This document shows, one piece after another, positions 2,729 through 18,462 of a stretch of 20,084 nt of DNA. The position numbers and the translations under genes are program-made. The stretch is taken from assembly GCF_006345805.1 (NCBI RefSeq), contig NW_021824062.1, forward strand, positions 1 to 20,084, in the 5' to 3' direction. Within the stretch, counting starts at the first letter, position 1. Every line of letters begins with the position of its first letter. This stretch comes from Octopus sinensis (taxonomy: Eukaryota). The notes below the pieces were generated by a model. The model saw only the letters and a program-made list of their open reading frames with translations. It searched no databases and was not told the DNA's origin.

Positions 2729-2917
2729 CTGTAAAAGAGAGAATATGCCACAAGGGCTTGGATATAATTATGTAAGAGAGAGATGTTTAATTCATTTTGT
2801 GTTCACATATTTTCTTAAGTTAAAAACACATATACACCATACGTACGCTTAGTCGTTGTTTATGTATTTTGGCGTTAGTGTGTACTTATACACACACACA
2901 CCCACCCACACACATAT

Positions 2918-3080
2918 GCGGCTGTGTGGTATGTAGCTTGCTTACCAGCCACATGGTTCCGGGTTCAGTCCCACCGCGTGGCATCTTGGGCAAGTGTCTT
3001 CTACTATAGTCTCGGACTGACCAAAGCCTTGTGAGTGGATTTGGTAGACGGAAACTGAAAGAAGCCCGTCGTATATATGT

Positions 3081-3143
<63 letters not shown>

Positions 3144-3378
3144 GTGTGTGTGTGTGTGTGTGTGTGTGTATGTTTGTGCGTTTGTGTTGTCCCCCTAGCA
3201 TTGCTTGACAACCGATGCTGGTGTGTTTACGTCGCCGTCACTTAGCGGTTCGGTAAAAGAGACCGATAGAATAAGTACTGGGCTTACAAAGAATAAGTCC
3301 TGGTGTAAATTTGCTCGACTAAAGGCGGTGCTCCAGTATGGCCGCAGTCAAATGACTGAAACAAGTAAAAAGAGAAAA
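2918..3378 (+). mobile_element. tRNA-derived SINE family A, near full length: head, internal (TA)n(TG)n, 3' module
   Basis: Pol III A-box-like cggctgtgtgg (2919) and B-box-like ggttcagtccc (2962), followed by a CORE-like cttgggcaagtgtctt. The head ends about 3075, the microsatellite spans 3072-3170, and the 3' module (3170-3378) recurs at 4850, 8630, 12836 and 14251. Confidence 0.85.
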
Positions 3379-3431
3379 AGATATATATATATATATAATA
3401 TATATATATAATATATATATATATATATAAA

Positions 3432-3675
3432 AGGAGACTCCATCGGTTACGACGACGAGGGTCCCAGTTAATTCGAACAACGGAACAACTTGCTCGTGAA
3501 AACGTGCAAGTGGCTGAGCAAACCACACACACGGATGCCCTTAACGTATTCGCAGGGAGATTCAGCGTCACTCAGAGTAACAAGGCTGGCCCTTTGAAAT
3601 ACATGTACTACACATTTTAGCCACCTGAGTGAACTGGAGCGACGTGAAATAAAGTATCTTGCTCAAGGACACAAC
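3432..3675 (-). mobile_element. SINE family B, 5'-truncated (no tRNA head)
   Basis: The minus strand begins gttgtgtccttgagcaagatactttatttcac, resembling the conserved central segment (gtgtccttgagcaag) of CORE/V-type SINEs, and ends at a TA tract. Family assignment is from memory. Confidence 0.6.
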
Positions 3676-4520
3676 AAGTGTGATCTCTGCATAGCTAATT
3701 TGCAATCCACGGATTGTCTAAATGAACATAGCAGTATAGGTTTTTTTCCTGCAAACATCGATCACTAAATCTATTCTCAAAATACAAATAACAACAACCC
3801 TATCCCGCTTTTTCCCTTATTGACCCTCACTACCACCGTATATTAAACCAACTTTATACCTTCCCTTTAATTCCTTTTTGTCGTTCACATAATTCTCTCT
3901 CTATCTTTCCTTACTATTTATAAAATTCTTTTCTCTTAATTCACGTGGCTTACACCTACCCACTCCACTATGCAAACTTACAATCACATACACCAACATT
4001 CACCTCTACTACTTTATATTAGTGTACACGCTCACCGCATACAATATACAACCTATAACTGAACGCTAATAGTAGTCGCCACTATTCTTGCCCATTGCAT
4101 CTTACTTCACACATACTTTCTTCCACCCTCTCCCCTCCACATTTTCTTTTTTCAAATACCACTCCTCTTTCTTATTTCTGTGATTCGGCCAAAATGGCGC
4201 TACCGAACACTACCAGTCAAAAGCTTTGCTGAAGCTCCTCTTTCTTCTCACTACCTTATGTATTTATTCTTTCTCCTTCTTTTAATCCCAATTTCTCTCT
4301 ATATTTATATTCTCCTCTCTTAGTGTGCTCTCTGCACATTCTGATTGAATATTCCATGCGTTAACATGTAAATTCTGGCGACAATGTAAACTTTCATTTA
4401 ACCAAGATATCCTGGCCTGAAGAGTAACCTGCACTATACACATCGCTTGAATATTTACCACTTCTGAGGTTCCGATTACTATGAAATATATGTAGCCCGG
4501 ATCTTATCTACTCCATATAA
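3676..4520 (+). mobile_element. Penelope-like retroelement 3' remnant: endonuclease C-terminus, long CT-rich 3' region and terminal hammerhead motif
   Basis: 3676-3791 translates KCDLCIANLQSTDCLNEHSSIGF, then after a frameshift in a T7 run SCKHRSLNLFSKYK*. This resembles the CxLC...LN...CR/KH tail seen after GIY-YIG domains of invertebrate Penelope-like elements. A hammerhead motif follows at 4404-4505, then (TA)n. Confidence 0.6.
4404..4505 (+). ncRNA. Type I hammerhead ribozyme-like motif with extended helix I
   Basis: Helix I aagat(at)cc(t)ggc / gcc(c)ggatctt; CTGAAGA at 4417-4423; long imperfect helix II; GAA at 4483; near-palindromic helix III ATATATGT; putative GUA cleavage triplet at 4492-4494. 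Confidence 0.65.
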
Positions 4521-4550
4521 ATATACATACATACATACACATATATATAT

Positions 4551-4618
<68 letters not shown>
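4515..4618. repeat. (TA)n/(TACA)n microsatellite
   Basis: Visible directly. Confidence 0.97.
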
Positions 4619-4621
<3 letters not shown>

Positions 4622-4820
4622 AATTCAAATAAACAAACAATTCAAATAACGGGGAGGAAAACACTAAAAGAAGAAAAGGAAAGCAACGACACCTAAGAAT
4701 GTGCACAAAAAGTATATTAGCTTGACGCTACGCTCGATGAAAGGAGAGAGTTTAATGTTTCGAACATAGCCCTTCGTCGGAAAGGAGAGAGGGAAAAGTC
4801 GAGTGAAGAAATGGAAATGT
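4619..4820 (-). mobile_element. Short Penelope pLTR-like fragment with a minimal hammerhead motif (4751-4783)
   Basis: The minus strand reads ttt-CCGACGA-a-gggc-tat-gttc-GAA-ACAT-T-aaa. The element is flanked on both sides by (TA)n and shares its layout with 11433-11622. Confidence 0.5.
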
Positions 4821-4849
4821 ATAAATATATATATGTGTGTGTGTGTGTG

Positions 4850-5058
4850 TGTTTGTTTGTCTGTCTGTGTTTGTCCCCACAACATCGCTTGACAACCGAT
4901 GCTGGTGTGTTTACATCCCCGTCACTTAGCAGTTCGGCAAAAGAGACCGATAGAATAAGTACAAGGCTTACAAAGAATAAGTCCTGGGGTAGATTTGCCC
5001 GACTAAAGGCGGTGCTCCAGCTTGGCCGCAGTTAAATGACTGAAACAAGTAAAAGAAT
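4850..5058 (+). mobile_element. SINE family A 3' module; head not present
   Basis: Near-identical to 3170-3378 (cttgacaaccgatgctggtgtgtttac...aatgactgaaacaagtaaaaga) and preceded by the same (TA)n(TG)n run. Confidence 0.9.
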
Positions 5059-5099
5059 ATATATATATATATGAGCTGCGTTCTAAAACAATCCGACTT

Positions 5100-5240
5100 A
5101 ACTGGTACCTACTTCATCGACCCCGAATGAATGAAAGCAACGTCGATCTAGGCGGAATTTGACCCTAGAATGTAAAGATAAATGAAATGCCGCTAAGCAA
5201 TTTATCTGGCGAGCTCACACCTCTGACAGCTCACCGCCTT
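5100..5240 (-). mobile_element. tRNA-derived SINE family C, degenerate copy
   Basis: Aligns with copies at 7258, 16806 and 17050-17905 (atcgacccc...gtcga.ct.ggcggaatttga...gaaatgccgctaagca...ccgcctt). Confidence 0.85.
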
Positions 5241-5601
5241 ACAATCAAATGTAATGATACAACGCAAATAATAATGCTGTTTTACCAAAAGAGAAAATAT
5301 GTAATATATATATATCAAGTATATTGCATAATTATGTCTAAGAAGTGAACTTTGGAAAATATTGAATATTTAAACAGAAGTTATTAATGCGATGAGAATA
5401 ATAAAGTCAGTGTTCCTCTGTAAAAGAGCGCACTCGGTGTACAACGACAATAGTTAATCAAATACGTCCACGACTACCACTGCATACACACATACACACT
5501 GGCATGTACTCTCAAACGTTTGTCTCAATGCAAAATAGATCTGAAAGGTTAGTAGGGTGAAAATATGAACTGTTAATATGTATATTCACAGATGGGTAGA
5601 A

Positions 5602-5605
5602 ATAT

Positions 5606-5649
<44 letters not shown>

Positions 5650-5800
5650 CACTCACACACACACATATATACATATATATATATATGTAAGTGTGTGTGA
5701 GTGTATATGTATGTAATCATACACATATGCATATATGTATACGCATATGTATTTATGAATATATGACTATATAATTACATATGTATATATATATAATTCC

Positions 5801-5856
<56 letters not shown>

Positions 5857-6200
5857 ATACATATATAGATAGATATTTATGGTTATGTATACGCATTAAT
5901 ATATATATTATATATATGGTATGTTTATGTATATGTATGTATATATCAATTTATATACATGTACATATATACAAATATATGTGTATATATGTATATATAT
6001 ATATATATATAGATTATATATATATGAATGCCTCGGCGTTTTCAAGGATGTTCTTTCATTCTTGCTCCCTTGATATTATTATATACATATATATATATAC
6101 ACAAACACATAAATATATACATACATATATGCATATATATATATTATATATATGAATGTATATATGTATGTATGTACGTATTTATGTACGTATGCATGTA
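5602..6200. repeat. Long compound (TA)n/(CA)n/(TATG)n low-complexity tract
   Basis: Visible directly. Confidence 0.95.
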
Positions 6201-6555
6201 TCTTTAATAAGCCAGTCCTTACGATAAGAGAATAATGGAAAACAGAATTTATTGGAATTCCGGAATAGGAAATAACCGATAATGCAATTCTTCCTAAAGC
6301 AACGAAACTTTTAATGACACATCATCTATGATAGCATCGTGCTTCATACTACAGAGAATGGATTTGGCCACTGGACTTAGTATGTCTTCAACTGACCAGA
6401 ATTGTAAGCACTTTTCCAACTATACTTCATGAATATCAAACTTGAAATCCTTTTTCTACAGCCTACATAAATGGTAGAAAGTGTTAAAAACCCTTAACAC
6501 GTAAGTACGATGTTTTTAATGCTTGTTCAAGAAGTTTGTATTTCCTACACTTAAA

Positions 6556-6700
6556 CTATACGCAATATGCGCACTTTGTAACATTGTTGGTACAAAGAGA
6601 ACTATACCCTGGCCACCATATTGTATAATTTTCTGTTGCTCTTTGTTTTTGTTTTTCGATTTTGACACAAAGATTTGTCTCAAAAGCTGCTTCTTCACAA
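6556..6700 (-). pseudogene. Probable Ty3/Gypsy integrase zinc-binding (H2C2) domain remnant
   Basis: Two frames give KKQLLRQI and IEKQKQRATENYTIWWPGYSSLCTNNVTKCAYC (WWPG at 6618-6607). This matches the Gypsy pattern L..IH.GHLGIEK.K.RAR..VWWPG...I...V..C..C, although the His residues are lost. Confidence 0.5.
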
Positions 6701-7257
6701 TTTATACGCAATATTTTCTGAGGACTTGTATGTCTCAGTCTCACGCGAATATTTACCAAACGAACGATGAATTAGCTTGTGAGCGATTTCAAACTGATCT
6801 TTTTAGTATATCAATTTCTTTATCAAGCACACTAGGAAAAAAGAAAGTCTTTATCTCTCCAAACTATGTTATAAACTAACAAACCAAGTTCAGTAATATT
6901 CTATCATACTAATATTCTATCTTACACCCACTCTGGAATTCTTCTAATTGTCAAGTAGCTTTTGTTCATTTTCCCTTCTGAAAAGGGCACCTTCGGTTGC
7001 CAGTACAATTTAATGAGCTCCGCTTTCTATGCTCAGTTTTGTTCAAATTACGAACAATGAAAACCACTTCGAAATATTAAATTTTCATCAGTTGCTCGAA
7101 AGGATAAGCATTCAGTAGTTCTGTCCTCAAAAGTGTATAGATATTTGGTTTAAGCATTTAGTAGACTGCGAGGCCAAAAATATTTGTATATTGTCTTTAG
7201 TCCTCCATATTTCGTTAGACCTTGTTTATACTACGTGGCATTTGCTCATGCATCAAG

Positions 7258-7386
7258 TTATTGACTTCGAAATGATGAAAGGCAACTCCGATCTCGGCGG
7301 AATTTGAACTCAAAACGTAAAGACGGACGAAATGCCGCTCAGTATTTCGTCCGGTGTGCTAACGATACTGCCTTCTTACCGCCTTA
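7258..7386 (-). mobile_element. SINE family C copy
   Basis: Minus-strand B-box-like gagttcaaattcc; aligns with the other family C copies. Confidence 0.88.
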
Positions 7387-7619
7387 TACATCTTCAATAT
7401 TACTAAGAGAAATTATAACTGTAGGCGGAGAAATTTGTGGACTTCCAAAAGAACCAAACATATTTGTGTAAGTTCGACGCATTTTGTTTGCTAACTTATT
7501 TGAACAATTGTTCGTAAGAAGTGCAGATTGTTTATATTGCCTCCTTAATCTCACATAGATTCATTTTGTTATACGACCCCTTAATAAAAGACTACGATTC
7601 TATTCTCAAATAAAAATTG

Positions 7620-8052
7620 AAGTAACAAATGCAGAAGATCTTGCTGAATTATTCAGGACAAGATTGAATGTATGAATATATTAGCAGACAATATCGGAAA
7701 ATCATCTACGGCGCACTCACTACCGGAAAGAGATCGCGCGAGACGCGAGTGTCCCATGCGACGCCACAAAGACCAACTGAAGCAGACGATAAAACACACC
7801 AACATGGAACCTAAATTCTGGGAACAACGCTCAGAAGACAAAACAACGTGGCATTACACTAGCAAGACTGACGTAGAATATTTTGAAAAATATTGTCGAA
7901 GAAGTGAAGATAAACGATGGAAGACTTACAAACTCCAGCCAGAGCCTCAACGGACCTTTAAATGTGACTTCTGTGGATAATTGCTCAACGCAAAAAAATC
8001 AGTCTTATTAGCAATACTTGGAAACGAGGAGCCGATTACGACGACGACGATG
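7620..8052 (+). mobile_element. RTE-clade LINE 3' end, decayed
   Basis: ORF 7672-7980 (RRHKDQLKQTIKHTNMEPKFWEQRSEDKTTW...FKCDFCG) matches the RTE C-terminal pattern KRYKDxLKxxLK...WExxAxDRxxW...FxCxxCG. A short (GAC)n tail follows at about 8038-8052. Confidence 0.85.
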
Positions 8053-8629
8053 TCATCATGAATTTGTCTGCTTGAATTACTCTTCTGCTTGGTTGAGAAT
8101 CTAATGGAGACTCATTGCAAATTAGTTAATTCCTAAATGGTATGAACAATACATTTATTTACATCTAATTTATTCATGCATGAGCACATTTTACAAAAGT
8201 TCGTGGAAACAGTTTCGTACAGAGTCAATAAAATTCACTGGTGCTTACAACGTTTTCAGGATTTGTCGGTTGTTCACACACCGATTGACAACAGAACCTT
8301 AGTTTTTCACTGAATTTATATAACTAGTGTTGTGTCTATACGTATCGAAAACATATTTGTTTCCCGAATATTCTTAGCTACAGCCCTATTTATTCATAAT
8401 TAAGTAACATTTCTGAATTTACTTGAGATCGTTTCCATAATAATACTGCTCAAATTAAGTCATTAATTGTAGACACGTATGCTAACTGACTCTAGATTTG
8501 TCCTTATCCTTATTCGTGCATTATTTGCCTCTCTACGTTACAGGAAGTTATACAAGTTATACTCTGTTGTAGAGTCATCGTTTGCCGAGACGTTCCACGG
8601 CTTCGGCAATTGTCTTCTTTTGCTCTCTT

Positions 8630-8832
8630 CGCTTTTACTCGTTTTAGTCATTGGAAATGCGGCAATGCTGTAGCACCAGCTTGTAAAGTTAGTCAAACAT
8701 TCCTATCCAAGTGGTTGAGCCAGGTACCTACTATTATAGAGACTGCTTTTGCCGAACTGCTAAGATTCGGGGACGTAAACGAACCAACATTGGTTGCTAA
8801 GCGGTGGGAAGACAAACAGACAAAGACACAGA
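8630..8832 (-). mobile_element. SINE family A 3' module, older degenerate copy
   Basis: cttttactcgttttagtcattgg...tgcggcaatgctgtagcacc...cttttgccgaactgctaag...ggggacgtaaac...gacaaaca is the reverse complement of 3170-3378. Confidence 0.8.
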
Positions 8833-8963
8833 TACATATACATCATATATATATAGGTTTATATATATATACACATACATACATATGCATATACATACAC
8901 ATATAAAACGTATATATGAATGCATATATATTATATATGTATGTGTGTGTATGTGTGTGTGCG

Positions 8964-9037
8964 TGTGGATCAAAACAATTTGATTCAAATCCTTGATGCA
9001 TGTGGATCAAAAAAGTTTGCTTCAAATCCTAGATACT
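8964..9037 (+). repeat. 37-bp direct tandem duplication (2 copies)
   Basis: tgtggatcaaaacaatttgattcaaatccttgatgca / tgtggatcaaaaaagtttgcttcaaatcctagatact. Confidence 0.85.
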
Positions 9038-9212
9038 CTGAGTTTCAAGTATTTCTATGGTCCTCGGCTATTGAGTCTGAATGAGAGTTTGATTGAAGAG
9101 AGTGAATGTTTAGTACTGAACGTTAGCCTGAGGCTAGTCGAGAAAGGTCACGCAGTGTCGCAGTCTGATGTTGGTATTTCAATGCCAACAATTACTTGGA
9201 ATTTTCATTCGT

Positions 9213-9222
9213 GTATATATAT

Positions 9223-9266
<44 letters not shown>

Positions 9267-9500
9267 AATAGATAGATAGATAGATAGATATAAATATATA
9301 CCAACATACACATATATATATACACATATATATGTATATATACATATATATATGTATATATGTATATACATACACATATATGTCAGTTTGATTGTGTGTA
9401 TATATATTGGTAAAAACGGTAAGATAACAAAAGAAAGAAAGAGACCTCAATATTATGTAAATAGAGAGAGAGAGAGAGAGAAGAGAGAGAAAGAGAGAGG
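9213..9500. repeat. Compound (TA)n/(GA)n/(GATA)n microsatellites
   Basis: Visible directly. Confidence 0.9.
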
Positions 9501-9844
9501 AACTTCAAATTCGCCTTTCCCTAATTAAATTATTGACTTGAGGTAGTCGTTCTGCCTTGGTTCTGCTTTTTCCCCTAATATAATATATACCTGCTATAAC
9601 AGAACCCTAATACGGATACCTCGATACAGCCTCAGCTTTGAACTTGGAACCTAACGGACGACCAAACTATAGCACTTACACAGTGTACATATTCGTTTAG
9701 ATCACAAATGAACTAAACCCCTCATTCTTTACATATATGTATACACGCTCCCGATCACAGATATGCAAACAATACTGGTTCCATACCTAGCATTATTGGA
9801 GAATGAAAGTCCTTTAAAACAATAGGTATATATTACGCATATAG

Positions 9845-10140
9845 TTCACATTCAGTTAAATGAAGAAAAGAAAACGGAGAGTTGAAAGTTGATAATTATT
9901 TATTATTAACAAATTCGTAATCATTACTTCTTACAGCCGTTTCCATTAGTATTCAATAATTAAATTACAAATTAAATTACAAATTAAATTACAAATTTGT
10001 GCATTAAATTTGCTTTTACATGTTATGAGCATAATTTCATCAGAGAAACAGATATACTTTTCTATGTTACATGGCGACTTGTCAGGTCATACCAGCAGAC
10101 TAAATATGATGATTTATTATTTTAATAGTATTATGCGCGA
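9845..10140 (-). mobile_element. Hammerhead-bearing repeat (Penelope pLTR/retrozyme-like), left arm of an inverted pair
   Basis: Diverged reverse complement of 11145-11420; contains the hammerhead motif at 9928-10047. Confidence 0.7.
9928..10047 (-). ncRNA. Type I hammerhead ribozyme-like motif
   Basis: The minus strand reads ttct-CTGATGA-a-atta...(long AT-rich loop)...taat-g-GAA-ACGGCTGT-A-agaa, with helix I ttct/agaa and a GUA triplet. Confidence 0.65.
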
Positions 10141-10589
10141 GTGAAAAGTTAACGGATTGATTAGAATATAATGATGGCTAAAGTAAAATAAAGAAAGATA
10201 AAAAATTAAATGAAGTAAAACAGAAATAAATGGAGACTAATAAAATGAATAGGATAAATGTATAGCGAGTAATAAGAATAAAAATATTCACTTATAATAT
10301 ATAGATAAAGAGTTTTTATATATATATATATATGGAGAGAGAGAGAGATAAAGAGTATTTATATAAACATATATATATATATTTGAATATATTTTTCATA
10401 CCCATCACAACTATAAATAAAATAAGCATAGATCCATTTTAGTCCACCAGTGCGAAATAGCGTCTCCAGAAAGAAATACATCTAGTCTTAACGGATTTAT
10501 GAAAATGTGGGTGTGAGTGGATTTTTATCATAGAGCCAACAGTAACCATCAGATGTTTATGCTTACATAACAATATAATTACACTCGTA

Positions 10590-11053
10590 TGCATATATGT
10601 GTACATACACATAAGTGTAATATACATACATACATTCATACATATTTGTATATTATATATACACAATATATAACGTAATACACACACACAAATATATATA
10701 TATATACATATATATATATAATATATATATAATACATATATATATATATATATATACATTACACACGCATAGATATATACGCATTTCTATGCATACACAA
10801 ACATACACATATGTAGGCATATACACACATATATATGCATGTGTACACATCCATGCGCGTATATATATATACATGCATGGATACATATACAGACATACGC
10901 CCATACATAGATATATGTGTGTGCATAGATGTAAATAAGTACACACCTACATACATATACATAAATATATGTGTAAACACACATATTTATATATATAAAT
11001 ATACGTACATACATTAACATACGACTATACATACACACAAATGTATATATATA

Positions 11054-11095
<42 letters not shown>

Positions 11096-11110
11096 TCACA
11101 CATACATGTA
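10590..11110. repeat. Compound (TA)n/(CA)n low-complexity tract
   Basis: Visible directly. Confidence 0.93.
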
Positions 11111-11144
11111 CGATATCTATGACATAACGAAAATAAACATTATC

Positions 11145-11420
11145 TACACACGTAATAATTTAAAATAATAAATCATAATATTTTATCTGGTGTTATTATC
11201 CGATAGGCCGCCATGTAACATCGTAATGTATATCTCTTTCTCTGATGAAATTATGCTCATAGCATGAAAATGCAAATTTAATACACAAATTTGTAATTTA
11301 ATTATTTAGTACTAATGGAAACGGCTGTAAGAAGTAATGATTACCAGTTTCTTAATAATAAATAACTATTCTTTTTAACTTTCAACTTACTATTTTTTTC
11401 CTTCATGTAACTTGATATGA
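11145..11420 (+). mobile_element. Hammerhead-bearing repeat, right arm of the inverted pair
   Basis: Diverged reverse complement of 9845-10140; ends at a (TA)n tract. Confidence 0.7.
11238..11333 (+). ncRNA. Type I hammerhead ribozyme-like motif
   Basis: ttct (11238), CTGATGA (11242-11248), long helix/loop II, GAA (11318), ACGGCTGT (11321-11328), A, agaa (11330-11333). Core and helices I/III are identical to the inverted copy. Confidence 0.68.
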
Positions 11421-11432
11421 TGTATATATATA

Positions 11433-11622
11433 GAGAGAGTTTACAAAAAAGAACAAAAGAAGAAGTCAGGTGGTGTACAAAACGAACAGATGTATTAGTA
11501 TAACGCTCAGGAATAGAAAAAGTATTTTACATTTCGAGCCTACGCTCTTCTACAGAAATGGACACAGAAAAAACAAGGTGAGAAACAAGGAGAGAAAAAA
11601 ATGTGGGTAGTGGCTGGCTAAC
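11433..11622 (-). mobile_element. Short Penelope pLTR-like fragment with a variant minimal hammerhead motif (11525-11558)
   Basis: The minus strand reads ttt-CTGTAGA-a-gagc-gtag-gctc-GAA-ATGT-A-aaa. Helix II is a perfect 4 bp, but the core is non-canonical (CUGUAGA). Flanked by (TA)n on both sides. Confidence 0.5.
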
Positions 11623-11752
11623 GATATATATATATATAATATATATATATGTATATATATATATAACCAAAAAATAAGCAACAAGAATGGATCCGGTAAT
11701 TTAGATCAGTTTTTATGATTGGAGCTAAGAATGGGGGCTTCTGAACAATTAC

Positions 11753-11861
11753 CGTGGTACCATCCGTTTCCATGTTCATTAACCGTTTGGCATATATGCT
11801 TCCAGTTCTGTAGAACTTCCATAAAAGAACTGCTTTTATGTTCTTCTCTATACTCGAGATA
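11753..11861 (-). other. Candidate spliced exon (109 nt)
   Basis: Acceptor ttcactttcactttgccatatAG and donor ACG|GTAATT. Two frames are open (ISSIEKNIKAVLLWKFYRTGSIYAKRLMNMETDGTT and YLEYREEHKSSSFMEVLQNWKHICQTVNEHGNGWYH); no family recognised. Confidence 0.3.
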
Positions 11862-12422
11862 CTATATGGCAAAGTGAAAGTGAATTATTACATTGATTTT
11901 ATGGTGACCAAAACCGATGAGAGCCTGCTTTCTCTTAAATATGCTTTTTGGTGAAAACAGCAAAGAAATGTAATCTTGTATCTTGTAGTTGTAGTGTATG
12001 CAATTGAAAAAAAATCATACAACATCTCTTATATAAGATTAACCAAGTAAAAAACACAGCAGCATCTTCGGTTCTAAATCAGATCTTCTTGCGGAAACGT
12101 CTCGTTCATCGCCAGTTCTTTCCTTCTTTCTCACATGTAAGCTCATAAATTTTGTTTATAGTTTCTTGCGTGGAAGAATTATAATGTGTCTGTTAAGTTT
12201 ATAGCGATTTTCGTCTTCAGTTTCCATTCTTACTTCACGATGTTCCTACATACAGTACGAAATGTCAGTACGAACTTCAAATACTTCTGCCTTGCTCATA
12301 AGCAGCACACCTCCTTTGTCAGTTCAAGATTTTCTCCCCTTCCTTCCGTCCAATTATTATATTTCTTTTCCATCTACTGATGAGGCACAGATGTGATTGT
12401 CTGCTAAGCAAGCATGCAGTTT

Positions 12423-12478
12423 ACCAAGGCCTTCTGAGTGAATTCAGTGGATAGAACCGGGTGGAAGCCTGTCATATG
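12423..12478 (+). mobile_element. SINE family A head fragment, degenerate
   Basis: accaaggccttctgagtgaattcagtggatagaaccgggtggaagcctgtcatat aligns with 3020-3074. Confidence 0.65.
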
Positions 12479-12521
12479 AATATATATACATATATGTACA
12501 GCCTCCCCTCTTGTATATATA

Positions 12522-12578
<57 letters not shown>

Positions 12579-12587
12579 CACACAATA

Positions 12588-12790
12588 GGGGATGCCGTAA
12601 AGGCTTCTCGTAAAAGAAAAACACCGGTTCCAGTCAATTGTGATTTTATCCAAATTATTCGCTTCTCAGATGCACGCAATTATTGCACCGGTCCTTCGTT
12701 TCTTCTAAGCCGTGTAAAAGATCTCGCAAGGTTTGGCCTAAAACCAGAGCTTTCACAGTAACCTCAAAGCCAGGGACTTTTCAGCACCCC
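12588..12790 (-). mobile_element. Mariner-derived MITE (about 200 bp) retaining the transposase C-terminal codons
   Basis: Degenerate terminal inverted repeats: ggggatgccgtaaaggcttc on the left and the reverse complement ggggtgctgaaaaagtccctggc on the right. The internal minus frame LHGLEETKDRCNNCVHLRSE*FG* resembles the mariner ending GIxKLxxRWxKCVxxxGxYxE*. Confidence 0.7.
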
Positions 12791-12835
12791 TTCCTTCCTA
12801 CACACACATACACACACATATATATATATATATTT

Positions 12836-12900
12836 CCTTCCTCTTAGTCATTGGACTGCGGCTATGGTGGGGCACAGCCTTGACGGTTTTTAGTCGAATG
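12836..12900 (-). mobile_element. SINE family A 3' end fragment
   Basis: ttagtcattggactgcggctatggtggggcacagccttg...tttagtcga aligns with 14270-14320. Confidence 0.7.
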
Positions 12901-12989
12901 AATCCACTATCTTTCAGGGAGCTAAACGTAACGAGTCAAGCAGCGGTAGGAACAATCACAAACCTTACAGTCACATCTGAGCCTGGATA

Positions 12990-13055
12990 TGCATATATAT
13001 ATATATATATATATGGTGTGTGTATATACATATAGATTATATATTATATATATAT

Positions 13056-13103
<48 letters not shown>

Positions 13104-13126
13104 GTATATACATAATATATATATAC
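12990..13126. repeat. (TA)n microsatellite, imperfect
   Basis: Visible directly. Confidence 0.95.
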
Positions 13127-13340
13127 CGGAGTAAACACATAACAGTGAAACAAGGTGGAAAAAAGAGTACTCAAATACCATGGTAGAGTAATATGCTTTA
13201 TTTAAAGCAGCAGAAAATTCAACAAAACCTGTTACTCTGATATGTCATTGACATATCGGTTCTATTCTAGCAAAGACTGTCCGATGAACGGCAACGCGAA
13301 ACTCAGAGTAACTGTTTTGTTGAATTTTCTGCTGCTTTAA
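13127..13340. mobile_element. Penelope pLTR-like fragment with an internal inversion
   Basis: A 38/39-bp inverted repeat (13202-13240 vs 13303-13340) encloses a palindrome and a hammerhead motif. Flanked by (TA)n on both sides. Confidence 0.65.
13277..13314 (+). ncRNA. Minimal type I hammerhead ribozyme-like motif, degenerate
   Basis: ctgt-CCGATGA-acg-GCAA-cgc-GAA-ACTCAGAGT-A-actg has a GNRA loop II, palindromic helix III and a GUA triplet. The inverted copy reads acag at the last position, which restores helix I. Confidence 0.65.
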
Positions 13341-13341
13341 C

Positions 13342-13344
<3 letters not shown>

Positions 13345-13396
<52 letters not shown>
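13345..13396. repeat. Perfect (TA)n microsatellite
   Basis: Visible directly. Confidence 0.97.
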
Positions 13397-13400
<4 letters not shown>

Positions 13401-14167: not shown

Positions 14168-14250
14168 ATATATATGTATACATATGAACATATATATAAT
14201 ATATATATACATACTTATGTAACACACACCCATATATATATATATGTATA
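14069..14250. repeat. (CA)n + (TA)n compound microsatellite
   Basis: Visible directly. Confidence 0.93.
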
Positions 14251-14403
14251 TTCTTTTACTCTTTTACTTGTTTCAGTCATTTGACTGCGGCCATGCTGCA
14301 GCACCGCCTTTAGTCGAGCAAATCGAACCCGGGACTTATTCTTTGTAAGCCCAGTACTTATTCTATCGGTCTCTTTTGCCGAACCGCTAAGTGACGAAGA
14401 CGT
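14251..14403 (-). mobile_element. SINE family A 3' module, little diverged
   Basis: Close reverse complement of about 3228-3378. Confidence 0.9.
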
Positions 14404-14684: not shown

Positions 14685-14846
14685 CTGCAATTTGTCATCT
14701 CACAAATCCACTCACAAGACATAACCTCGGTCCGAGGCTATACTAGGAATTAGAAGACACTCGCTCAAGGTGCACATAGTGGGACTGAACCCCCCGAATA
14801 TGTGGTTGGGAAGGAATCTTATTACCACACAGCCAAGCCAGCGCCT
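14685..14846 (-). mobile_element. SINE family A head, diverged
   Basis: The reverse complement reads aggcgctggcttggctgtgtggtaa...gggttcagtcccac...ccttgagcgagtgtcttcta...tatagcctcggaccga...cttgtgagtggatttg and aligns with 2918-3045. Confidence 0.85.
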
Positions 14847-15147
14847 ATGTTGCATCAACTTCGGTAAATATCTGCATTGCATTATATAGACTCGATCTAC
14901 AGTTTAGAAGAAAAATACAACCATTTTCTTTAACATGAGATATTATGACAGTTCCATATCATCATAAGATAGGGGTTATCTCGATGGTGTTCAGTTAATT
15001 AAGCTAAGAATTAACACAAAAGCATCTCAGGTTATAAGCAGTTACCGAGATGCATTCTGCTTCGCTTCTTTCTCTTATAAGGATTTAAATTGTTTCTTAA
15101 AATTTGGTAATTAAAAACAAAACCAACCGGTGAATAATTATTTCTCA

Positions 15148-16324: not shown

Positions 16325-16795
16325 CCTCTGTGTACTTCCCTGGGCATGGACACATTGAAAATCCGACGTCTGGCAGCTGACTTGGCAGACACCCATAAAA
16401 TTATCAACCATCGTACAAACAATAACTCTGACCACCTTTTCAAACTCCACCCATCTAACACCCGTGGACATATTTACAAAGTAAGAAAACAGCACAGCTC
16501 CCATGACTTCAGGAAACATTTTTCCACGCTGAGAGTTGCTGAAGCATGGAACAAACTGCCGGCATCAGTTGTTAGTTGTCGGAGCACTGCATCCTTCAAA
16601 ACTTCCATGCTTCCTGAGATTCGGCAACACTACACTTGATTTTCTCCCCTCCATACACACACAAGCATGTATCTGACTCATACATTGTTCGCTATCCAGA
16701 CATTTCTACATTACTGCATGTACTTTATATGCACTTTTTGACAAGTTGTGGTGCATCTGAGCACTGTATACAATAATTTCATTATATTATTATAT
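16325..16795 (+). mobile_element. CR1-clade LINE 3' end: ORF2 C-terminus, 3' UTR and short (ATT)n-like tail
   Basis: ORF 16346-16639 (TLKIRRLAADLADTHKII...NTRGHIYKVRK...FRKHFSTLRVAEAWNKLPASVVSCRSTASFK) matches the CR1 motifs RRLRGDLI..YKI, TRGH and RV...WNxLP.....S...FK. The frame is uninterrupted and the element is 5'-truncated. Confidence 0.92.
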
Positions 16796-16805
16796 ATAAT
16801 ACTCT

Positions 16806-17013
16806 TTTTTATCGTAAGCACAAGGTCTGAAAATTGTGGGACTGCGACAGGGGTGGGAGGAATCGGTTTCATTCATCCCACTTATTTTATCGACTCCGAA
16901 AAGATGAAGTGCAAGGTTGACCTCCATGGAATTTGAACTAAGACCCATAAAATGAAGGAAATGCCGCTAAGCATTTTGTCCTGTGTGCTAACGATACAGC
17001 CAGCTTGCCGCCT
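16806..17013 (-). mobile_element. SINE family C, near full-length diverged copy
   Basis: The minus strand starts aggcggcaagctggctgtatcgttagc (A-box-like), then tagttcaaattcc (B-box-like) and the central ccttgcacttcatcttttcggagtcgataaaataagt. Confidence 0.85.
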
Positions 17014-17049
17014 AACACATCACTTTATTAATTCCTTCCATTATATTGT

Positions 17050-17905
17050 TAGGGGGGGGAGCTAGTCGATTACATCGACCCCAGTGTTTCACTGGTATTT
17101 AATTTAGCGACCCCGAAAGGATGAAAAGCAAAGTTGATTTCGGCGGAATTTGAACTCAGAACGTAACGGCAGACGATACACTTATTTCTTTACTACCCAC
17201 AAGGGGCTAAGCACAGAGAGGACAAACAAGGACAGACAAACGGATTAAGTTGATTATATCGACTTCAGTGCGTAACTGGTACCTATTTAATCGACCCCGA
17301 AAGGATAAAAGGCAAAGTCGACCTCATTGGAATTTGAACTCGGAACGTAACTGCAGGCGAAACACGGCTACGCATTTTGCCCGGCGTGCTAACGGTTTTT
17401 ATTTCTTTATTGCCCACAAGGGGCTAAGCCTAGAGCGACAAACAAGGACAGACAAAGGAATTAAGTCGATTAAATCGACCCCAGTGCGTAAATGGTACTT
17501 AATTTATCGACCCCGAAAGGAGGAAAGGCAAAGTCGACCTCGGCGGAATTTGAACTCAGAACATGGAGACAGACGAAATGCCGCTGATCATTTCGTCTGG
17601 CGTGCTAACGACCCCGGAAGAATGAGAGGCAAAGTCGACCTCGGCGGAATTCGATCTCAGAACGTAGAGACAGACGAAATATGTATTTCTTTACTACCCA
17701 CAAGGGGCTAAACACAGAGGGGACAAACAAGGACAGACAAACGGATTAAGTTGATTACATCGACCCCAGTGCGTAACTGGTACTTATTTAATCGACCCCG
17801 AAAGGCTGAAAGGCAAAGTCATCCTCGGCGGAATTTGAACGCAGAACGTAACAGCAGGCGAAATACGGCTACGCATTTCGCCCTGCGTGTTAACGTTTCA
17901 ACCAG
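17050..17905 (-). repeat. Head-to-tail array of SINE family C copies (unit about 217 bp plus partial units)
   Basis: The tail tatttctttaYtRcccacaaggggctaa starts at 17183, 17400 and 17684. The core gaccccgaaagga.gaaaggcaaagtcgacctcggcggaatttgaactcagaac occurs five times. The central segment resembles Meta/Sauria-type SINE domains (from memory). Confidence 0.9.
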
Positions 17906-18462
17906 AACGCCACGTTGCAGCTTTCAAATATTTTAGCAGAAAGTTATGCGGTAAAACGATCGGTGAAAAGATACGGAGAGAGTGTCTCTACATGGCCACA
18001 GACCAATGTTCGAAGCGACTAAAAGAGTGTAACATTTCCCACGATAGTAATCCAAGAATCGAAGACAATCGTGTTCAACGAACACATACACATGTACACG
18101 TATGAACCTACACGTATATCTACACACACATGCGTCCGTATATATAAACATATCCATATACATACATACATAAATACGTACGTGTTTATGTGCTGTATGT
18201 GTGTGTGCGTATAAATATTTCTATTTTCGAACGTGATAGTCTTCAATCGTGTATGTGGGAACACACGCACATATACATACACACTTGGATAGACACATTC
18301 GACGTGGACAATACATGTATACTTACGTATGTGAGTTCGTTATCTTCGGATAACTTCGTGTGTATTCGCCTCCGGATAACTTCATGACATATGGAAATCG
18401 TTATTTCATTGCATTGTCAGAGTTTCTAAAGTTGTATTTTCTACTTTTCCCTATACACACCG

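Follow-up and report, generated by a model that had tools for sequence, protein, structure and literature searches.

The window analysed here, a 20,084-nucleotide (nt) stretch of Octopus sinensis DNA, is the entire contig NW_021824062.1 of a 2.72-Gb, microsatellite-rich genome. It contains six hammerhead-ribozyme-like motifs, all at the places and on the strands given in an original prediction made from the sequence alone, with core boxes at 4417-4423(+), 4780-4774(-), 10043-10037(-), 11242-11248(+), 11555-11549(-) and 13281-13287(+). The six are worn hammerhead sequences from five repeat families, which we term A to E, and they occur far above chance. We consider it very probable that they mark the 3' pseudo-long-terminal-repeat (pLTR) ends of five families of endonuclease-encoding Penelope-like elements (PLEs), present as heavily 5'-truncated, dead copies in TA microsatellites, and that each end carries a minimal type I hammerhead likely to cut the element RNA only slowly, and only as a dimer or with the help of protein. 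The features of the window are listed below; fetched genomic loci bear L numbers.

3673..4516, plus strand: family A, 5'-truncated 3' end of a Hydra-type PLE (endonuclease remnant, T/C-rich 3' untranslated region (UTR), pLTR) that ends early at a TA tract; from blastn to the long copies L376 and L124 and from the family loci
3670..3788, plus strand: broken C-terminal end of a GIY-YIG endonuclease (CxxC...CxH region), in two pieces whose frames differ; found by tblastn from the L203 frame (E 1e-8)
4414..4497, plus strand: family A hammerhead-like motif, core 4417-4423, GAAA 4483-4486, boxes 59 nt apart, cleavage predicted after 4494; the copy departs from the family majority in nine places
4515..4618, no strand: TA-rich tract shared by copies A and E at their 3' ends
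4619..4818, minus strand: family E, short 3' end of a second Neptune-type PLE
4751..4783, minus strand: family E minimal hammerhead with a U4C core, an extra A before helix II, GAAA and a helix III that is ACGU in the family; cleavage predicted after 4754; the copy departs from the family majority in three places
9771..10627, minus strand: family B (Hydra-type), long, tail-bearing arm whose 3' UTR is interrupted by a microsatellite; blastn to L222 and L373
9928..10047, minus strand: hammerhead-like motif of family B, its boxes separated by 93 nt that include a local tandem expansion (9958-9997); cleavage predicted after 9932
11147..11420, plus strand: family B, short, inverted, tail-less arm that stops at a TA tract and is probably the long arm's 5'-inverted partner
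11238..11333, plus strand: hammerhead-like motif of family B, its boxes 69 nt apart; cleavage predicted after 11329
11433..11618, minus strand: family D, short 3' end of a Neptune-type PLE with TA on both sides
11525..11558, minus strand: family D minimal hammerhead, with U at core position 6 as family-wide, predicted cut after 11528
12993..13125, no strand: (TA)n tract flanking element C
13126..13240, minus strand: family C, tail-bearing arm (tail ~13126-13195), truncated inside its hammerhead
13247..13345, plus strand: family C, inverted, tail-less arm; hammerhead 13277-13314 (GNRA loop II, helix III ACUC-A-GAGU), predicted cut after 13310
13345..13397, no strand: (TA)n tract flanking element C

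The original prediction spoke of about five elements, mostly unrelated to one another, each next to a TA tract. Five families are indeed present; D and E turn out to be distant relatives, and the two B motifs are probably the arms of one inverted insertion. The two B arms are 86% identical to each other, compared with a median of 81% to other copies, and have four rare letters in common, at least four being held in common by 19 of 435 pairs. With the two B motifs taken as one inverted pair, the window holds five insertions. Element C has a second, inverted arm at 13126-13240, cut within its hammerhead, which the prediction did not include. The motif at 9928(-) is an exception to the proximity to (TA)n, its nearest (TA)4 lying 274 nt upstream and 536 nt downstream. 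A single common family for all motifs was considered and rejected.

As predicted, the motif rate is far above that in dinucleotide-shuffled DNA. With a descriptor modelled on the literature, which was composed after the families had already been seen, three of the six window motifs pass, compared with a mean of 0.02 in block-wise dinucleotide shuffles, of which 0/200 reach three; in an independent test on 40 arbitrarily placed 10-kb stretches (L377-L416) there were 11 strict-core matches and 0 in each of 10 shuffles, or 13 and 0-2, respectively, with position 6 left free. The explanation that the motifs are chance matches in AT-rich, repeat-rich DNA can appeal to an initial, stricter descriptor, weak on decayed copies, which only one or two window motifs pass and whose count is equalled in 2-18 of 200 shuffles, and also to the Rfam models, which give the motifs no score: narrow scans over five of the six motifs returned no hammerhead row at E<=10, a whole-window scan gave no hammerhead for the left B motif among the matches listed, and the matches that the window does have are only to microRNA entries and are microsatellite-driven. 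We attach practically no weight to this explanation, which we count as already refuted by the result on independent DNA and by the absence of any match to a reversed family D pattern. Also against it are the position of the motif at a PLE 3' end in each of five families, the recurrence of unforced features (C15.2-G16.2 palindromes, the GNRA loop, a free position 7) and the agreement of the family C helix III with published Hydra-clade hammerheads.

For each family, 633-1,743 first-look candidates were obtained, 40 were scored and 30 fetched, and every host segment proved to be a dispersed repeat. The counts given for the families leave out the window's own loci and same-locus duplicates (L049, L052, L053 and L132; in counts of partners also L134 and L137). 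The CUGANGA...GAAA...UH core is present in A and B, and C and E carry C at position 4; copies with the entire core intact number 15/28 in A, 18/26 in B, 21/29 in C and 14/29 in E. In the alignments the family majorities restore the fold, with a helix III that is perfectly palindromic in A, D and E. The imperfection of helix III in three window copies (ATATATGT, ACAT, ATGT) is thus copy-specific decay. Helix II is closed by G-U in the A majority, an extra A precedes a G-C-closed helix II in the D and E majorities, and the C majority has a GNRA loop. In family C, two GNRA tetraloops alternate in loop II, and the base opposite position 10.1 is U, G or C according to subfamily. The boxes are 59-93 nt apart in A and B. 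The helices of A pair in 91.5% of cells, compared with 14-49% when slid. The prediction that the core is conserved more than the flanks agrees with the alignments, where 38/1347 non-CpG core cells and 866/10358 flank cells differ from the majority, a comparison confounded by BLAST selection, shared ancestry and T-tract misalignment. By calculated energies helix III has no stability as a hairpin and forms a self-duplex of -1.7 to -9.7 kcal/mol; stability only as a self-duplex fits the dimer model and the low in vitro activity of minimal hammerheads (Cervera and de la Pena 2014, PMC4209133; this and the other cited sources are drawn on in part throughout). We infer that cleavage in A to E would occur in the dimer.

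The proposed linkage to PLE reverse transcriptase (RT) and GIY-YIG endonuclease (EN) open reading frames (ORFs) is borne out, in that walking upstream reaches PLE coding sequence in all five families: both RT and EN for A, C and D, and EN only for B (one locus) and E (two loci). In family A the EN C-terminus is found in L133, L150, L124 and L122, as well as in the window; in 16/30 EN loci (seed locus included) the endonuclease is followed, 78-1254 nt further down the same strand, by the pLTR, and RT, EN and pLTR follow in order in L169, L207 and L209. Family C has a same-strand EN upstream in 5/30 loci, and two near-full elements (L371 and L372, ~3.3-3.5 kb) comprise a DKT/YRDD RT, an EN, a tail-less 3' pLTR and, at the 5' end, an inverted tailed copy. 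For family B, EN lies ~1.2 kb upstream in L373, the UTR of which matches window positions 10387-10627. Upstream of the family D pLTR, L374 and L375 contain an RT (DKG, YIDD), a CX4CxxC linker and a CCHH-type EN; the protein has 103 database homologues, mostly RT plus PF26215 (the best included), some also with GIY-YIG PF01541. The C-terminal part of an EN lies upstream of family E in L365 and L344 (2/30 loci), and this EN is 59% identical to that of D over 81 amino acids. A search for EN homologues returned one protein. Among Hydra markers, the CxCX5C linker occurs in A, B and C, CxxC/CxH in A and C, and DKT was seen only in C; there is no CCHH. On these motifs A, B and C appear to be of Hydra-clade type, and D and E of Neptune type. 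A Naiad identity was ruled out, since the EN is C-terminal. Two other EN groups found with the protein of A end in hammerheads of their own, not in B to E. These two groups (L181, L219, L193, L214 and related loci) are of Hydra type, with ~40-47% EN identity to A, and their long-loop hammerheads are followed by TA.

The predicted targeting of (TA)n is likewise supported, as TA flanks are enriched over both random positions and a short interspersed element (SINE) control. In family C, (TA)4 lies within 20 nt at each end in 26/29 copies; the background is 6.9% for (TA)4 within 20 nt of a random point, 16/96 for SINE 3' ends, and 2-4% per tract interval. Counted from GAAA, the first (TA)4 of family D falls at +99 to +109 in 19/29 copies. 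Alternating purine-pyrimidine tracts, made of TA and often continued by TG or CA, begin at +112 to +150 in 21/29 copies of E, at +36 to +58 in 10/28 and +216 to +260 in 14/28 copies of A, and at +89 to +103 in 14/26 and +189 to +225 in 7/26 copies of B. From the tract-start positions it follows that A, B and C each have two 3' ends, ~205, 120 and 70 nt apart, respectively; the tails of published PLEs measure 30-40 bp (Craig 2021, PMC8557442; Frangieh 2024, PMC11167929). Elsewhere in the window, at 11660-11760(-), the 3' tail of another element abuts a TA tract, its last 45 nt matching the end of the Hydra-type group of L187 and L219, with no intact hammerhead evident upstream; a TA-flanked piece of a further repeat family at 9400-9466 (92-97% identical to L041, L308 and L208) is possibly a PLE tail without a hammerhead.

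The 5' ends of the copies are scattered, forming continuous ladders up to and into the ORF, and the window copy of A retains the last endonuclease codons. Inverted partners within 1.5 kb are found at 28/29 loci of C, 8/26 of A, 8/26 of B, 1/29 of E and 0/29 of D; direct-repeat partners at 4/26 of A, 0/26 of B, 0/29 of C, 3/29 of D and 0/29 of E. We therefore rejected tandem arrays of retrozyme type, direct partners being found at 0-4 of 26-29 loci per family. Families A, B and C thus combine 5' truncation with an inverted 5' partner and an optional 3' tail, and D and E have the truncation only. The original prediction had inferred several ribozyme-bearing, non-autonomous families targeting (TA)n: the hammerhead-type motifs, the plurality of families, the PLE link and the TA targeting all stand, and the non-autonomous status is not supported, given the scattered 5' ends and the longer copies that run into RT and GIY-YIG ORFs, though family D may include a subset of short-transcript copies.

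Several observations weigh against the assignment of all five families to PLE 3' ends with working hammerhead folds. Families D and E have one 3' end rather than two, and rarely have inverted partners. The EN link is one locus for B, and a related EN query found B downstream within 1.5 kb in 0/30 loci; for E it is two loci. The clades are motif-based rather than drawn from an RT tree. The long copies all have stops or frameshifts, none of them yielding an intact full-length ORF, and local Pfam scans gave nothing above the cut-off in 7/7 ORF fragments. Covariation in the helices of family A did not exceed that in shuffles (0 double changes), and in B it is slight, with double changes at one distal pair in 3/19 rows; absent or slight covariation fits copies that decay neutrally. 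Folded as single strands, intact copies do not form the hammerhead; only D and E pair helix II, and only D pairs helix I. RNAalifold missed the hammerhead in A, and in B it recovered no more than helix I and a portion of helix II.

For the anatomy described (the motif, the family structure, the RT and GIY-YIG sequences that precede it in longer copies, the 3' ends next to TA, the inverted partners and, in A, B and C, a choice of two 3' ends) we propose the following course of events. The GIY-YIG nuclease would nick (TA)n, as the PLE literature suggests; the RT would start on uncleaved RNA from either of two internal sites, so that ends arise with or without a tail, and would usually stop early, giving truncated copies, as may be surmised from Frangieh 2024. 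The hammerhead would trim tandem read-through transcripts of rare full-length source copies, and the window copies would be decaying passengers. Among 64 copies found by their flanks, none starts at -6 to +4 of the predicted cut and one starts at +5, in a comparison of low power; because hammerheads are intact inside copies and none of the 64 starts there, the templates appear to have been uncleaved at the cut site. Both Craig 2021 and Frangieh 2024 leave the role of the hammerhead in PLEs unresolved.

Family D is distinguished by its core. The original prediction took CUGUAGA to be a one-off variant; U6 in fact holds across the whole family, so the window motif is no decayed variant. A 27-nt family D pattern with positions 4, 6, 7 and 15.2 left free has 15,076 exact matches (reversed control, 0). 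Among the first 100 listed matches, all from one chromosome arm and counted by hand, 98 have U at position 6, 2 have C and none has A, and position 7 is U in 46, A in 23, C in 16 and G in 15. Copies found by the 3' flank alone have A6 in 0/18, after 5/23 without the hammerhead region were dropped. Position 7 follows subfamilies on a flank tree (9 changes compared with 16.9 when shuffled, which is weak support), and at position 17 either A or U is found. The remaining ten core positions are kept, and variation is mainly at 7 and 17, the free positions of the consensus. Family E, the relative of D, has A6 in 29/29 copies. Low activity is reported for hammerheads changed at A6, and a naturally occurring A6C ribozyme cleaves slowly (Perreault 2011); the U6 core thus likely slows self-cutting in D, where cleavage would be slower still than in the other families, and D would have spread with a core predicted to be impaired and the rest of the consensus kept. 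We found no U6 core in the literature on hammerhead core variants consulted, nor in the examined part of the Cervera 2014 alignment. Contigs from four presumed-RNA runs are rich in family D sequence, which is uninformative on strand, ends and cleavage. Lunse et al. 2017 are said to have catalogued ~150,000 variant hammerheads, and U6 may already be in print there or in Weinberg 2015.

Two further explanations bear on what these elements are and what the motif does. Some or all of the families could be dedicated non-autonomous elements, SINE-like solo pLTRs or retrozyme-type units, whose short RNAs are mobilised in trans by PLE proteins. Most copies are just 150-350 nt long; about 9/30 unselected D copies start, by eye, within ~20 nt of one place, 70-85 nt upstream of the core; a cluster of 5' ends in D lies at -90 to -102 from GAAA; and animal retrozymes have been argued to derive from pLTRs (Li 2026 preprint). 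We nevertheless hold this explanation to be quite improbable, because the 5'-end ladders are continuous up to and into the ORF, ORF-bearing copies carry the same pLTR, there are no tandem arrays, and the canonical helices or loops of retrozymes are lacking.

Alternatively, the source elements might keep the fold for a non-catalytic job, such as RNA recognition or RT positioning by a PLE protein, cleavage being dispensable at least in D. This would be compatible with the origin of the copies from PLE 3' ends and would accommodate the at least 15,076 copies with U6 across several subfamilies, the low activity that follows changes at A6 (Perreault 2011), the absence of copies that begin at the cut site, and the finding that hammerhead mutants of the anole PLE insert in vitro, with no RNA ends at the cut site (Frangieh 2024). 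On the other side, selection for catalysis predicts just what is seen in D, ten other core positions kept and drift at the free positions 7 and 17, and the natural A6C ribozyme still cleaves, albeit slowly; on balance we think a purely non-catalytic role unlikely, though considerably less so than non-autonomous status.

With minimal type I hammerheads at PLE 3' ends as our preferred explanation, the basic arrangement is already published, namely minimal hammerheads in PLE pLTRs, (TA)n targeting and an octopus Hydra element, and the window is therefore an ordinary sample of a PLE-rich genome. Cervera and de la Pena 2014 described minimal hammerheads, solo and on opposite strands, that derive from truncated PLEs, and Craig 2021 lists Hydra-1_Obim of Octopus bimaculoides with a hammerhead and a (TA)n preference, beyond which we found nothing on octopus hammerheads in the literature, judged at listing level. 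Three departures were not found in the part of the PLE-hammerhead literature examined: the U6 core of D, the 59-93 nt between boxes in A and B, and 3' tails of ~70-205 nt rather than the published 30-40. In the alignment rows of Cervera 2014 examined, all hammerheads have A6, and their boxes are about 10-25 nt apart; C and E differ from them also in their C at position 4. Families A, B and C resemble the Hydra clade of Craig 2021 in the CxCX5C linker, CxxC and CxH around E/N, the lack of CCHH, DKT (seen in C), insertion at (TA)n and a hammerhead near the 3' end, the helix III of the clade being palindromic and 7-9 nt long. The helix III of C equals that listed for Penelope-3_HM, and the RT of C resembles, by eye, the printed RT of Hydra-1_Obim. 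There are differences too: the hammerhead sequences of A, B and C are not that listed for Hydra-1_Obim; where listed Hydra loop 2 sequences have 3-10 nt, A, B and many more families in this genome have long inserts; and the tails of ~70, 120 and 205 nt exceed 30-40 bp.

Family D shares with Neptune-type PLEs its DKG, YIDD, CX4CxxC linker and CCHH-type GIY-YIG domain C-terminal to the RT, together with the microsatellite bias noted for that clade (Craig 2021), and departs from them in its family-wide U6 core, inverted partners and a second 3' end being rare or unseen. PAc, a Poseidon element of the green anole (Frangieh et al. 2024), also has two genomic 3' ends, and its insertion from uncleaved RNA fits the intact hammerheads seen here; it belongs to a different clade, has a tail of 30-40 nt, and has a ribozyme that was assayed (protein-assisted), whereas those described here are known from sequence alone. 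Non-LTR retrozymes (Cervera and de la Pena 2020, PMC7229834; Li et al. 2026 preprint) likewise have a type I hammerhead in an animal genome at high copy number. Their hallmark, head-to-tail, non-coding monomers of 150-450 bp with a canonical hammerhead, is not shared by A to E, as seen from the partners and coding links: there are no head-to-tail arrays and no canonical loop-loop hammerheads, and the motifs are contiguous with coding PLE bodies.

The window is denser in motifs than the genome average and of the same kind. The 40 arbitrarily placed stretches contain ~27 intact-looking type I hammerhead motifs per Mb, which implies ~75,000 such hammerheads genome-wide (Poisson range 37,000-134,000). 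All fetched loci together (1.83 Mb, a non-random sample) yield 256 distinct matches in 41 clusters, 17 with two or more members and 24 singletons, a few of them by chance, and many of the hammerheads at fetched loci have 43-96 nt between the core boxes. In the Octopus vulgaris annotation, 190 Penelope-like families occupy 6.83% of the genome, and its main text makes no mention of ribozymes.

Other repeats occupy much of the remaining window. The segments at 2915-3081, 3169-3380, 4854-5056, 8613-8843, 14246-14403 and 14692-14851 are very abundant, with 25-123 matches among the fetched loci. We take these to be SINE-like. Another abundant repeat lies at 5095-5247, 7255-7399 and 16880-17931, with a tandem run of ~216-nt units at 17049-17931. 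The repeat at 16414-16800 is 90-96% identical to pieces in L212, L029 and L205, and is presumably the 3' end of a long interspersed element. The segment at 12587-12793 is moderately repeated, and that at 6200-6950 looks by eye like decayed transposase sequence, without a match among the fetched loci.

As a more far-reaching hypothesis, to which we give somewhat less than even credence, family D, the most successful lineage sampled and one with several subfamilies, may represent a core variant that arose naturally and was selected: a weakened ribozyme that dimerisation or a PLE protein rescues, or else a fold retained so that the RT recognises it. It would then be one of dozens of families that together supply tens of thousands of hammerheads, many having loop II inserts of 45-95 nt, which escape standard descriptors and Rfam, and 3' tails 2-5 times as long as those published. 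The density and diversity of the motifs suggest a large, uncounted population of ribozyme-like sequences with long loop II inserts, and the long, two-ended tails would extend the model of priming at two start sites to the Hydra clade. A high-copy family with a fixed change in the conserved core, beside a relative with the normal base, is a ready-made natural experiment; if the hypothesis is true, the pair formed by D (U6) and E (A6) would make the role of the hammerhead in PLEs directly testable.

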